DNA of 64,000 nt from Jiangellaceae bacterium (GCA_050743075.1 JBOGDS010000003.1:12614-76613), one strand, 5' to 3'. Counted from the first letter of the stretch, positions 49,129 through 52,378 are shown. The notes: generated by a model from the letters alone, not told the origin. Made by a program: numbers and translations.

Positions 49129-50127
49129 ATGACCGAATTCGATCCCATACCGGATCCCCGCCTACCCGATCCCGAGCCACGACTCACCGATGTTGATCCT
49201 AGGGCGCGCCGGCGAGTAAGGCGACAGGTCGCCGGCATGTTTACCGTGGCGGCGGTGCTCGTCCTGGCCTCGATTGTCTTCTACTTCGCCTTCGGCGTCG
49301 AGGCCGGGGAAGACGGCGTCAACCTCGGCGACCTGCGATTGCATAACCTCGGGCTCGGCCTGACGCTCGGCCTCGCGTTGCTGCTGGTCGGGGGTTGCAT
49401 TGTGCGCTGGTCGCGCTCGTTGACGAACAGTACGGAGATCGTCGAGCGCAGGGAACTGAGCGGCTCCGGTGATGCCGACGAGCCAGGCTCGGAGCGTACC
49501 GGCCGCGAGGCGAAAGGCGCCGGGTTCGGGCGGCGCCGGCTGATCCGCAGTTCGCTGCTCGGTGCTCTCGTGCTGCTGCCGCTGCCGACCATCGGGGTGC
49601 TGCGCGGCTTGGACCGGGAGGCGGGCACCAGGCGTGGGCGCACTGCGTGGGCCGAGGGTGTGCGGTTGCTGACCGATGTCGGCTACCGACCTGTTCGAGT
49701 GTCCGATCTCCAGGTCGGCGGGATGGTCAGTGTCATGCCGGCCAGCTTCCTTGACTTGCCCGAAGCGGGTCCGGCGCGGCTGAACGAGCGGGCCAAGTCG
49801 CCGGTCGTGCTGGTCCGGATGCGACCGGAGGAACTGGCGCCCGCTGAGGGGCGGGAGAACTGGCACGTCGACGGGATCGTCGCCTACTCGAAGATCTGCA
49901 CCCACCTCGGGTGCCCGGTCAGCCTCTACGAGCGCACGACGCACCACCTGCTGTGCCCCTGCCACCAGGCAACCTTCGATCTCGCGGACAACGGGGCGGT
50001 GGTCTTCGGCCCGGCCACCCGCTCGTTGCCGCAGCTACCGCTTTCGGTCGACGACGACGGAATTCTGGTTGCGCGAAGCGACTTCACTGAGGCTGTCGGG
50101 CCGAGCTACTGGGAGCGGGAAGCATGA
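49129..50127 (+). CDS. qcrA: Rieske [2Fe-2S] subunit of a cytochrome bc-type complex (QcrA-like)
   Basis: Three TM helices (the third preceded by RRR). 'CTHLGCPVS' and 'CPCHQATFD' cluster-binding boxes. Confidence 0.85.
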   Translation: MTEFDPIPDPRLPDPEPRLTDVDPRARRRVRRQVAGMFTVAAVLVLASIVFYFAFGVEAGEDGVNLGDLRLHNLGLGLTLGLALLLVGGCIVRWSRSLTNSTEIVERRELSGSGDADEPGSERTGREAKGAGFGRRRLIRSSLLGALVLLPLPTIGVLRGLDREAGTRRGRTAWAEGVRLLTDVGYRPVRVSDLQVGGMVSVMPASFLDLPEAGPARLNERAKSPVVLVRMRPEELAPAEGRENWHVDGIVAYSKICTHLGCPVSLYERTTHHLLCPCHQATFDLADNGAVVFGPATRSLPQLPLSVDDDGILVARSDFTEAVGPSYWEREA

Positions 50128-51809
50128 CGAACACCAGCCAGACTCCTACGAAGCCGAGCCGCACCTGGGCGCTGAGGCAGGCCGGAAGGGTGGTCGGCTT
50201 CGTTGACCAGCGGATCACGGCGAGTCGCTGGGTGAAGCGCAATGCGCGCAGGGCTTTTCCCGATCACTGGTCGTTCTGGCTGGGCTACATCGCCTTCTTC
50301 AGTCTCATCGTGGTCCTGGTGTCGGGCGTGTTCCTGACACTGTGGTTCAAGCCGTCGATGACACCCGTCGTGTATGACGGTGCGTACGCGCCCTTGCAGG
50401 GTGTGGTCGTCTCCGAGGCGTACGCGTCCACGCTGGACCTCTCCTTCGAGGTCCGCGGTGGCCTGCTGATGCGCCAGGTCCACTACTGGGCGACGCACAT
50501 ATTCATCGCCGCCATGGTGGTGCACCTGCTACGCGTCTTCTTCACCGGTGCGTTCCGCACGCCTCGGAAGCTCAACTGGCTGATCGGGCTTGGCCTCTTG
50601 TTACTAGGGATCCTCGGCGGGTACACCGGCCACGCGTTGCCAGATGACCTTCTCTCGGGGACGGGCCTACGGGTGATCGAAGGTGGGATGCTCGCCATCC
50701 CGATCGTCGGGACCTACCTATCATCGTTCATCTTCGGCGGCGAGTACCCGGGAGACGACGCCGTCTCCCGCCTCTACCTGTTGCACGTGTTCGTGTTGCC
50801 AGGACTCATCGTGGCGCTCCTCACAGCGCATCTGATCCTGGTCAGGCGCCAGCGGCCCACCCAGTGGGGCGGCGCGGGCAGGACGAACCAGAACGCCGTG
50901 GGCTCCCCACTCACCGTGCACCTGGCCAGGGCCGGCGGGTTCGCGGTCATCATCTCCGGGTTCATCATCATGATGGCGGCCACCCTGCAGATCAACCCGG
51001 TCTGGCTCCGGGGACCCTACAATCCCTCACAGGTTGACGCGGGTAGCCGGCCGGACTGGTATCTCGCGTTCCTCGACGGCGCGCTTCGGCTGATGCCACC
51101 CTGGGAGATCGACGTACTCGGACACACCTTGACGCTGAGTGTCCTCGTGCCGACGGCCGTGCTGCCCGGGATCATCCTCGCAACGCTGGCTATATACCCG
51201 TGGATCGAACACAAGATCACCGGCGACGAAGGTGACCAGCACCTCCTGGACCGGCCGCGGAACATGCCCACACGGACCGGGCTCGGCGTCGCGTTCATCG
51301 TCTTCTACGTCCTGCTCTGGATCGCCGGCGGCAACGACCATCTCGCAACTTCTTTCGATGTCTCGGTGAACTGGGTGACGCGGTCCCTGCAGATCGGCAT
51401 CGTCGTGATGCCGCCGCTTGGGTACTGGGTCACGAAGCGAATCTGCGTCGGCCTGCAACACCGAGACCGCGACAAAGTCCTGCACGGGCGGGAATCCGGC
51501 ATCATCATCGCCAGCCCCGGAGGTGGGTTCTCCGAGGTGCGCATCCCGCTCAGCCAGCACGACGCGTACGCGCTCACCTCGCATGAGCGTCGGGTGCCGT
51601 TCGAACCGGATCCGGAGACCGATGAGAACGGGATTCCGGCCCCGCGGCAACGCTCATCGAGGCTTCGCGCACGGCTGTCAAGAGTCTACTTCGGGGACAT
51701 CGTACCCAAGCCCACGGTCGAGGAACTCAGGGCGGCTCAGCACGAGGCCGAAACCGAGCATAGGTCCACGGCACCTGCAAGGACCGACGCAGGTGGAGCT
51801 CAACCGTGA
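50124..51809 (+). CDS. qcrB: cytochrome b subunit (QcrB-like)
   Basis: Heme-ligand pairs 'HYWATHIFIAAMVVH' and 'HVFVLPGLIVALLTAH'. Qo-site 'PDWY'. ATGA overlap with qcrA. Confidence 0.9.
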   Translation: MTNTSQTPTKPSRTWALRQAGRVVGFVDQRITASRWVKRNARRAFPDHWSFWLGYIAFFSLIVVLVSGVFLTLWFKPSMTPVVYDGAYAPLQGVVVSEAYASTLDLSFEVRGGLLMRQVHYWATHIFIAAMVVHLLRVFFTGAFRTPRKLNWLIGLGLLLLGILGGYTGHALPDDLLSGTGLRVIEGGMLAIPIVGTYLSSFIFGGEYPGDDAVSRLYLLHVFVLPGLIVALLTAHLILVRRQRPTQWGGAGRTNQNAVGSPLTVHLARAGGFAVIISGFIIMMAATLQINPVWLRGPYNPSQVDAGSRPDWYLAFLDGALRLMPPWEIDVLGHTLTLSVLVPTAVLPGIILATLAIYPWIEHKITGDEGDQHLLDRPRNMPTRTGLGVAFIVFYVLLWIAGGNDHLATSFDVSVNWVTRSLQIGIVVMPPLGYWVTKRICVGLQHRDRDKVLHGRESGIIIASPGGGFSEVRIPLSQHDAYALTSHERRVPFEPDPETDENGIPAPRQRSSRLRARLSRVYFGDIVPKPTVEELRAAQHEAETEHRSTAPARTDAGGAQP

Positions 51810-52378
51810 GCCGCGACCTCCACGAGCCCAGCGGCCGCGGTCCGCATGACACCCTCGGTGTGCCTCGAGATGCTGACCGAAAACAGGTGATCCGGGCGTT
51901 TCGCCGAAAGGCCCGGCTCGGCGGCCATCCCGACACCGGCGGCGATACCCAGACCTTCGAAGACCTTGTCCGGGCCCGGGACACCCTGCTCGACCCGAGT
52001 CGCCGCACCGCCTACGAAGCTGACCCACGGAATGGGCAGCACGAGCAGACCCGCGCGGCGCCGGGTCCCCGGCCGGCCCCGCCACACTGGCCGCCACCGA
52101 GGATGAATCGGTTCGCGATCGCCGCTGCGGTGCTCGCCTTGCTTGGCCCGTTCTGGTGGCCGGTGGCGATCGTCGTCGGCCACGTGGCCCTTCGCCAAAT
52201 CAAACGGACCGGCCAGGGCGGCGGGACGCTCGTCCCGATCGTGCTGCTCTTCCTCTACATCTTCACTGTCCCGGCACTCGTAGTAGTAGTAGTAGTAGTA
52301 GTAGTAGTAGTAGTAGTAGCGGTGTTGGACGCCACGCTGGGTGAGGACGTCGGCGTCACGCTGGCTGCGGCGGTCTGA
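51806..52378 (+). CDS. membrane-anchored J-domain protein (J domain plus DUF4190-like two-TM C-terminus)
   Basis: 'DTLGVPRDADRKQVIRAFRRKARLGGHPDTGGD...LLDPSRRTAYE' (HPD motif). 'VVGHVALRQIKRTGQGGG'. GTGA overlap with qcrB. Confidence 0.8.
   Translation: MSRDLHEPSGRGPHDTLGVPRDADRKQVIRAFRRKARLGGHPDTGGDTQTFEDLVRARDTLLDPSRRTAYEADPRNGQHEQTRAAPGPRPAPPHWPPPRMNRFAIAAAVLALLGPFWWPVAIVVGHVALRQIKRTGQGGGTLVPIVLLFLYIFTVPALVVVVVVVVVVVVVAVLDATLGEDVGVTLAAAV
52280..52318 (+). repeat. (GTA)13 perfect trinucleotide microsatellite, translated as Val13
   Basis: Counted directly: 13 consecutive GTA units, in-frame with the J-domain gene. Confidence 0.95.

Follow-up and report, generated by a model that had tools for sequence, protein, structure and literature searches.

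The closest known system to the genes described here is the actinobacterial bcc complex QcrCAB, represented by the III2IV2 supercomplexes of Mycobacterium smegmatis, Mycobacterium tuberculosis and Corynebacterium glutamicum (PDB 6ADQ, 6HWH, 7RH5, 7E1V, 7Q21). Extra copies of its cytochrome b subunit, QcrB, are known in actinobacteria and are poorly understood. Streptomyces coelicolor offers the nearest biological precedent, as QcrB2 (SCO7120) and QcrB3 (SCO7236) are encoded away from the qcr-cta locus. QcrB3 is made conditionally (in spores), co-purifies with bcc-aa3 components and, according to one proposal, takes the place of QcrB in the supercomplex (PMC7931247). We analysed a stretch of 64,000 nucleotides from a soil actinobacterium of the Jiangellaceae (GCA_050743075.1, JBOGDS010000003.1:12614-76613; hereafter the window), in which a first-pass annotation made from the sequence had pointed out an accessory Rieske/cytochrome b pair, here called qcrA' and qcrB', joined to a gene for a membrane-anchored J-domain protein. 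Like QcrB2 and QcrB3, QcrB' is an extra cytochrome b encoded away from a qcr-cta locus; the Streptomyces copies are, however, lone qcrB genes of a different clade, with the canonical Qo motif GFxGYSLPDD and with neither a paired qcrA, a J-domain neighbour nor a promoter of the ECF41 type.

In class C J proteins such as Escherichia coli DjlA and mitochondrial Pam18/Tim14, a J domain with the HPD tripeptide is tethered by a transmembrane (TM) segment to an energy-transducing membrane, presumably localising Hsp70 there. The ECF41 sigma factors, among them M. tuberculosis SigJ, Bacillus licheniformis Ecf41 and Rhodobacter sphaeroides RSP_0607, are the third group with which our locus shares features, namely a fused SnoaL_2 domain, a 'COE' gene preceding the sigma gene and the promoter TGTCACA-N16-CGTC. 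Their published promoter signature is TGTCACA, a spacer of 16 +/- 1 nt and CGTC; the COE>ECF gene arrangement was described in the same study, where COE genes were the only detectable ECF41 targets (PMC3426412).

In this study, we present a combination of accessory qcrAB genes, an ECF41-type promoter and a J-domain gene which, by comparison of genomes, is real, conserved and previously undescribed. The first-pass annotation knew of no described system of this kind, and in agreement our literature search found no published description of ECF41 with qcrB, of a J domain with DUF4190, or of the overall combination. The reading we favour, at a rough probability of 45%, is an ECF41-induced isoform swap. 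Activation of the sigma factor, probably by redox, oxidative or toxic-compound stress, would lead to synthesis of QcrA' and QcrB', and these would replace their housekeeping counterparts in the bcc-aa3 supercomplex, with the single-copy QcrC and the aa3 oxidase serving as their electron acceptor. The swapped enzyme would possess a lower-potential Rieske centre and different Qo chemistry, while the J protein, anchored in the membrane and with the J domain facing the cytoplasm, would recruit DnaK to fold, insert or exchange the alternative cytochrome b. The module comprises the following features (positions are those of the window):

49055-49081 (+), ECF41-type promoter motif TGTCACACGTGGATGGGCCATCTCGTC, an exact TGTCACA-N16-CGTC ending 47 nt before the qcrA' start codon
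49129-50127 (+), qcrA', accessory Rieske subunit (NCBIfam bc1_QcrA_actin; Pfam QcrA_N, Rieske)
50124-51809 (+), qcrB', accessory cytochrome b (NCBIfam bc1_QcrB_actin; Pfam Cytochrome_B, Cytochrom_B_N_2)
51806-52378 (+), gene for the membrane-anchored J-domain protein (Pfam DnaJ, DUF4190)
52280-52319 (+), (GTA)13 microsatellite within the J gene (TRF score 80)
52387-52419 (+), GC-rich hairpin 3' of the J-gene stop codon, a possible terminator (minimum free energy -28.4 kcal/mol, z-score -1.9)

The three open reading frames (ORFs) are joined by two 4-nt overlaps, ATGA at 50124-50127 and GTGA at 51806-51809, just as first annotated. ATG 49129 is favoured over ATG 49054 as the start of qcrA', because the -35 element of the promoter motif overlaps the latter; the start ATGACYGA is also kept in orthologues. 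QcrB' scores 668.1 bits on NCBIfam NF050120 (bc1_QcrB_actin, cutoff 500) and its best match among solved structures is C. glutamicum QcrB (E = 6e-147). The four haem-ligand histidines H120, H134, H221 and H236 are invariant, and PDWY (310-313) is kept in at least 96% of the clade. QcrA' scores 344.8 bits on NF050121 (bc1_QcrA_actin, cutoff 275); its alignment displays the Rieske boxes CTHLGC and CPCHQATF, the disulfide cysteines, three TM helices and the twin-arginine sequence GRRRLIR before TM3. The features which the first-pass annotation had read in both proteins are thereby borne out, and with scores above the curated cutoffs, a three-TM QcrA' with twin-arginine and a full-length QcrB' with four His and PDWY, the pair resembles QcrCAB. 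Unlike QcrCAB, it has no adjacent qcrC or ctaE, is preceded by an ECF41-type promoter, has a J-domain gene attached, and shows Tyr to His at the Qo site, Phe to Tyr at a menaquinone contact and Ser to Ala in the Rieske subunit. By profile score QcrA' and QcrB' would be placed in the actinobacterial QcrA and QcrB families, yet both depart from a feature usually treated as invariant. Neither these substitutions nor the ECF41 promoter, the sigma locus and the (GTA)13 repeat had figured in the first-pass annotation.

Comparison of 47 QcrB' sequences with 59 canonical relatives revealed nine clade-fixed differences, two of them in the Qo pocket. The Qo helix motif reads GYTGHALPDD in QcrB' and GFxGYSLPDD (G-F/L-x-G-Y-S-L-P-D-D) in every other actinobacterial QcrB examined, the lone Streptomyces paralogues included. 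According to alignment with solved structures, H170 of QcrB' corresponds to bovine Y131 and Rhodobacter Y147; it is His in 47/47 clade members and Tyr in every other actinobacterial QcrB examined. According to a review, every bc1 complex has Tyr at this position, and enzymes in which it was exchanged for Phe, Val, Ser or Ala are severely impaired (PMC7908018). Y167 aligns with bovine F128 and with M. smegmatis F156, the residue that stacks on menaquinone and on telacebec (PMC8523172). Concerning the Rieske subunit, the cluster-bonding Ser is Ala in 27/27 accessory-type QcrA sequences (CPCHQ-A-T/S-F) and Ser in 92/92 others. Because the Ser that hydrogen-bonds a cluster sulfur is replaced, a lower-potential Rieske centre is predicted for QcrA'; in yeast, the same exchange lowers the midpoint potential by about 130 mV (summarised in PMC12954380). 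The Qo pocket is thus remodelled on both sides, by Tyr to His and Phe to Tyr in QcrB' and by Ser to Ala in QcrA'. More distant J-linked relatives carry His (P0168, L051) or Asn (the cultured Haloactinopolyspora alba) in place of the Qo Tyr, and their PDWY motif has changed to PPWY or PVWY, with loss of its acidic residue; their Qo site may be without the usual quinol oxidation. The distant J-linked cytochrome b genes lie at 6001-7689 of the H. alba locus (L040) and at 5523-7103 (-) of L051.

QcrB' is 100% identical to an NCBI protein from a Jiangellaceae metagenome-assembled genome (MAG). In the assembly GCA_975374905.1 the same three genes are found on contig 115, and contig 202 carries a complete canonical locus, ctaE-qcrC-qcrA-qcrB, followed by ctaF-ctaD-ctaC. 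Canonical QcrB of this MAG is 63% identical to QcrB' and canonical QcrA 57% identical to QcrA'. Since a MAG bin is open to contamination, the isolate H. alba was examined too; it possesses the canonical operon and a separate locus with a lone QcrB' relative and the J-domain gene. On these assemblies the QcrA'/QcrB' pair is additional to the canonical ctaE-qcrCAB locus, so that the first-pass claim of an extra copy holds and the idea of a sole, housekeeping qcrAB falls. qcrC is also present in P. halotolerans (L006) and in L011, as found by a CxxCH scan without a filter for third-position GC (GC3).

Neither qcrC nor ctaE adjoins the accessory pair in the window, and no coding-like ORF with CxxCH is present between 44 and 58 kb, in line with what had been noted for the operon and its neighbours; the only CxxCH ORF there has a GC3 of 0.67, outside the coding range. 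In none of the lineages scanned is a cytochrome c gene found in or near the operon. This would fit a stand-alone Rieske/cytochrome b module with an acceptor of its own, independent of QcrC and the aa3 oxidase, and the altered Qo site and Rieske potential might suit a different redox span. We nevertheless consider such a module improbable. No candidate acceptor gene travels with it in the lineages compared, where the flanking genes vary from lineage to lineage, and several lineages possess qcrB' and the J gene without a Rieske gene and cannot form a stand-alone Qo site. QcrA' and QcrB' moreover retain the full actinobacterial architecture at 57-63% identity to the housekeeping copies of the same MAG. 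The unknown electron acceptor proposed in the first-pass annotation is not required, given the lack of a conserved acceptor gene, the lineages devoid of qcrA' and the precedent of Streptomyces QcrB3 (PMC7931247).

The atypical codon usage that had been remarked upon is real and its effect is modest. GC3 is 0.82 for qcrA', 0.83 for qcrB' and 0.75 for the J gene as compared to 0.88 +/- 0.03 for the other genes of the window and 0.91-0.94 for the canonical qcr genes of the same MAG; the TTA codon at 50601 is present. Weak expression would account for the lower GC3 no less than transfer. The first-pass conclusion that the module was probably acquired is not supported by the QcrB tree (neighbour-joining, 150 QcrB sequences, without support values). 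The J-associated QcrB' proteins form one clade, closest to which are H. alba P0190 and P0168; clade and relatives together are sister to the canonical Jiangellales QcrB, which points to an ancient duplication within the order. On account of this placement, horizontal transfer from a remote source was rejected.

A module amid sigma-gene fragments, with GC3 below that of neighbouring genes, with qcrA' lost or truncated in some lineages and with a J gene given an odd C-terminus by a poly-Val microsatellite, might be a decaying duplicate without current function. We regard this as very improbable. Across more than 40 diverged sequences the three ORFs remain intact, the cofactor ligands and HPD are invariant, and the promoter motif is kept in otherwise diverged spacers. 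The ratio of nonsynonymous to synonymous substitution rates (dN/dS), from a crude method applied alike to accessory and canonical genes, is 0.23-0.44 for qcrA', 0.23-0.32 for qcrB' and 0.21-0.31 for the J gene, and 0.17-0.35 for canonical Jiangellales qcrB; at 0.2-0.4 the module equals canonical QcrB. All three genes are intact and under purifying selection, and a pseudogene reading was rejected on dN/dS and ligand conservation.

The association of the J gene with orthologous cytochrome b genes elsewhere, on which the first-pass annotation had staked its case, is kept in every informative locus (about 20 genome, MAG and metagenome stretches extending far enough), including loci without qcrA' and loci with an inverted J gene. 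The J gene lies directly 3' of qcrB' in the window, L002, L003, L004, L007, L031, L034, L037, L042-L049, L052 and L053. In 13/14 measured loci the qcrB'-J junction is a 4-11 nt overlap or a 13-16 nt gap. In H. alba the qcrB' relative and the J gene are convergent and overlap tail to tail; in L051 they are convergent with an ECF41 sigma gene between them. Among the informative loci no J gene was found without QcrB'. With a profile hidden Markov model of the J family, the surroundings of accessory qcrB genes in Streptomyces, Spongiactinospora, Actinopolymorpha and Phytoactinopolyspora yielded no match, and the J link is therefore restricted to the lineage of QcrB' with His or Asn at the Qo position. 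Of qcrA' a remnant is left in L002 and L034, and nothing in L007, H. alba and L051; all five retain an intact qcrB' and an intact J gene. The conserved core is therefore the cytochrome b together with the J protein, and in these five lineages QcrB' would have to pair with housekeeping subunits.

The J protein starts at its N-terminus with a J domain carrying HPD, which a Pro-rich linker connects to a membrane hairpin of two helices that resembles DUF4190. The J domain is recognised by Pfam DnaJ (PF00226) with 33.9 bits (cutoff 27.8). On NCBIfam TIGR02349 (DnaJ_bact) the protein reaches 28.5 bits against a cutoff of 377, with only the J domain aligned; since nothing but this domain matches DnaJ models, it is a class C J protein. 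A two-TM tail resembling DUF4190 had been proposed. Its two long helices are reproduced by AlphaFold2, while the family assignment is borderline, at 35.6 bits over 39 residues on PF13828 (cutoff 35), and the H. alba homologue falls below the threshold. The 66 homologues (clusters at 90% identity) all stem from uncultured Jiangellaceae-like actinobacteria, measure about 165 residues and have the same architecture. HPD is invariant in the 67 sequences, as are L113, G114, P115, W118, A121, G125, R134 and G139 in the hairpin. The AlphaFold2 model computed from this 67-sequence alignment has a mean predicted local distance difference test score (pLDDT) of 75. Its J domain (pLDDT 84-93; helices 13-17, 25-39, 48-62 and 64-71) is followed by the disordered Pro-rich linker and by helices 102-134 and 142-189. 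The top 40 Foldseek matches are all J domains, with probability 1.0. Lacking a signal peptide and depending on ATP-bound DnaK, the J domain should face the cytoplasm; the short conserved hairpin loop RTGQGGG carries positive charge. As compared to DjlA, the order is reversed, with the J domain N-terminal and the DUF4190-like anchor C-terminal. There is no detectable sequence relation to DjlA or Pam18 beyond the J domain, and the genetic link to cytochrome b is new.

The perfect (GTA)13 repeat, the only trinucleotide array in the window, encodes a poly-Val run at the end of membrane helix 2, in a host genome of 68% GC. The near-identical assembly L001 has 14 units. Homologues of the J protein are without the repeat, and the copy in the window extends about 25 residues past their usual stop.

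Among the Foldseek matches are 8iuf_E6 and 8gym_J1, J-domain proteins that belong as integral subunits to the respiratory supercomplexes of Euglena and Tetrahymena and show, in unrelated systems, a J domain attached to a respiratory complex. They lend some plausibility to a J protein acting as a stoichiometric subunit or regulator, with DnaK docking as a signal or in turnover control. The hairpin, moreover, is as conserved as the J domain, and by their arrangement in H. alba and L051 the J gene and qcrB' do not share a transcript, so that the linkage could even come from shared regulation alone. The invariant HPD argues instead for real Hsp70 stimulation, and tight translational coupling in 13/14 operon-type loci suggests co-production with QcrB'. 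We hold a subunit role, or linkage through regulation alone, to have a small chance of being correct, and retain the isoform swap with a chaperone role for the J protein as the preferred reading.

Upstream of the module, and again downstream of it, features of the ECF41 type are found on the opposite strand:

46653-47606 (-), intact ECF41-type sigma factor with regions 2 and 4 and a fused SnoaL_2 domain (Pfam Sigma70_r2, Sigma70_r4_2, SnoaL_2)
47573-48493 (-), NAD-dependent epimerase ('COE' gene), 5' of the sigma gene on the same strand (Pfam Epimerase, NAD_binding_10)
48528-48555 (-), ECF41-type promoter motif before the epimerase-sigma operon (exact TGTCACA-N17-CGTC)
48607-48987 (-), truncated, frameshifted second ECF41-like sigma gene (partial Sigma70_r2 match only)
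55109-55738 (-), glyoxalase/VOC-family gene (Pfam Glyoxalase)
55761-55787 (-), third ECF41-type promoter motif, exact, before the glyoxalase/VOC-family gene (local regulon, outside the operon)

Three exact motif matches in the window compare with 0.27 expected, and 0/100 shuffles reach three. The motif precedes the conserved start ATGACYGA of qcrA' by 46-54 nt in the window, L003, L004 (where the -10 element is GGTC), L005, L029, L031 and L037. It precedes qcrB' by 36-49 nt in L007, in H. alba and in L009, the lone paralogue of Phytoactinopolyspora endophytica. L002 and L034, with decayed qcrA', keep it further upstream. In total it is kept in 12/12 accessory lineages, at 36-54 nt before the first gene in 10/12, and the inverted J gene of H. 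alba has a separate copy of its own. A relaxed motif occurs 20 times in 1.39 Mb of strand sequence, 12 times at accessory-module sites and never at canonical qcr loci. As the sites are orthologous, the evidence lies in their conservation within otherwise diverged spacers and not in a statistic of independent events. The sigma factor at 46653-47606 has an orthologue, 85% identical, beside the lone accessory qcrB of P. endophytica, and ECF41 sigma genes with SnoaL_2 are likewise found near the accessory qcr genes of L009, L040, L051, L021 and L028. We consider this sigma factor the likely regulator of the module. The locus differs from known ECF41 systems in that the motif is conserved before respiratory genes and a J-protein gene and not before COE genes alone.

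The association of ECF41 with accessory qcr genes, either an accessory qcrAB pair or a lone qcrB, recurs outside the Jiangellales. In Spongiactinospora (L021 7871-11572, L030 5054-8755) an ECF41-like sigma gene, itself preceded by TGTCACT-N16-CGTC, lies directly 5' of other accessory qcrAB genes on the same strand; in Streptomyces albicerus (L028 9030-11593) one lies directly 5' of an accessory qcr gene, also on the same strand. Both the Qo Tyr and the Rieske Ser are canonical in these copies, and no J gene accompanies them. For S. coelicolor, the ECF41 supplement contains no SCO72xx entry, and the listed SCO7105 and SCO7112 are not adjacent to SCO7120 (QcrB2); a link of QcrB3 or QcrB2 to an adjacent ECF41 sigma gene found no support in that listing. 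The lone qcrB of P. endophytica (L009 9926-13637), with an exact ECF41 motif 49 nt 5' and beside orthologues of the sigma and epimerase genes of the window, groups with the canonical QcrB of Phytoactinopolyspora, and its Qo motif is the canonical one. A duplication of its own and of later date, by which it entered this regulon, might explain it, as might gene conversion.

QcrA' and QcrB' might alternatively be an inhibitor-insensitive spare Qo target, induced by a competitor's Qo inhibitor or a toxic quinone analogue, with the J protein and DnaK exchanging poisoned subunits. ECF sigma factors commonly respond to antibiotic or envelope stress, and the local regulon includes genes of the glyoxalase/bleomycin-resistance family. 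Clade-fixed changes fall at drug-contact or resistance positions, Y167 corresponding to the telacebec contact Phe156 of M. smegmatis (PMC8523172) and the conserved Tyr near it being replaced as well. Lone QcrB paralogues also occur on about 35 Streptomyces plasmids, two of them inside an apparent biosynthetic cluster with an efflux pump. These two, in S. xanthophaeus (NZ_CP116357.1, 6998-8719) and Streptomyces sp. NBC_00493 (7001-8782), neighbour a type III polyketide synthase, an aminotransferase, an adenylating enzyme, flavin-dependent (FAD) monooxygenases and a major facilitator superfamily efflux pump, which hints at a self-resistance layout for a natural product aimed at cytochrome b. The plasmid copies are, however, not orthologous to QcrB' and have the canonical GFxGYSLPDD (motif read in related chromosomal copies). 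No inhibitor is predicted and no biosynthetic cluster lies beside the module of the window, and Ser to Ala in the Rieske subunit is more naturally explained by redox tuning. An inhibitor-insensitive target is in our view unlikely, if a more serious contender than the alternatives above; it differs from the isoform swap mainly in physiological purpose.

Concerning the remaining surroundings of the operon, the first-pass annotation had placed a truncated sigma gene upstream, and indeed 48607-48987 contains a partial region 2, the N-terminal piece of the gene being in a different frame (48306-48983). This fragment and a second one at 56779-56975 (-) lie around the one intact ECF41 copy at 46653-47606. 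The three motifs together with the sigma copies and fragments look like a small, rearranged local ECF41 regulon. Between two sigma genes, at about 45400-46650, a stretch of about 1.2 kb with a lower GC content of 0.645-0.676 has no ORF with coding-like third-position GC; it could be what is left of a decayed gene, or else a scar of rearrangement. The hairpin said to follow the operon exists, its stability being statistically unremarkable; lacking a T tail, it was not called in a terminator scan. No RNA family of Rfam was detected in 44-58 kb, and none of the sites between 48.4 and 52.7 kb matched a sigma-70 consensus promoter. Convergent to the operon lies the gene for a UvrA-like ABC ATPase of 795 residues (52562-54949, -) with a UvrA DNA-binding domain and two ABC domains. 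It occupies the same place in L001 and is absent there in other lineages; UvrA paralogues of this type are often tied to drug resistance in actinomycetes.

Several points weigh against the isoform swap. The case for it is computational throughout. Accessory status in the organism of the window depends on a MAG bin, the QcrB tree is a neighbour-joining tree without support values, and the J protein of the window has an aberrant poly-Val C-terminus. The motif sites, being orthologous, are not independent observations, and as the published ECF41 targets are COE genes only, the promoter assignment is carried by motif conservation. Tyr to His at a residue whose replacement cripples bc1 complexes, together with loss of the acidic PDWY residue in relatives, could mean that the usual oxidation of quinol no longer takes place at the Qo site. 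That the pair would assemble with the housekeeping QcrC is suggested by the absence of a second qcrC and by a Streptomyces precedent that is itself incompletely proven. We infer sigma dependence, partnership with QcrC, a lower Rieske potential and a chaperone role, and the mechanism by which the J protein would act is conjecture. The proposal in its most specific form, that an ECF41 sigma factor switches complex III to a core without the supposedly universal Tyr and with a retuned Rieske centre, whose installation requires a dedicated membrane-tethered Hsp70 co-chaperone, is doubtful as a whole, though we take it seriously.

Extra cytochrome b copies of actinobacteria have offered little to work with, and the module described here supplies a regulatory handle in ECF41, a biochemical difference and a dedicated helper. 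It offers a naturally occurring exchange of a residue that is regarded as essential to the oxidation of quinol. The clinical candidate telacebec acts on QcrB, and natural alternative Qo pockets therefore bear on resistance mechanisms. H. alba is cultured and carries the QcrB'-J pair together with ECF41 motifs, which makes these questions directly testable. The module points to a bacterial counterpart of chaperone-assisted remodelling of respiratory complexes and suggests a first respiratory role for the large and functionally obscure ECF41 family, M. tuberculosis SigJ included. If sigma control is true, the ECF41 regulon would be extended by the module; and if the isoform swap is true, its J protein would be the first in bacteria committed to a respiratory complex, and the module the first physiological output of ECF41 beyond the COE genes.

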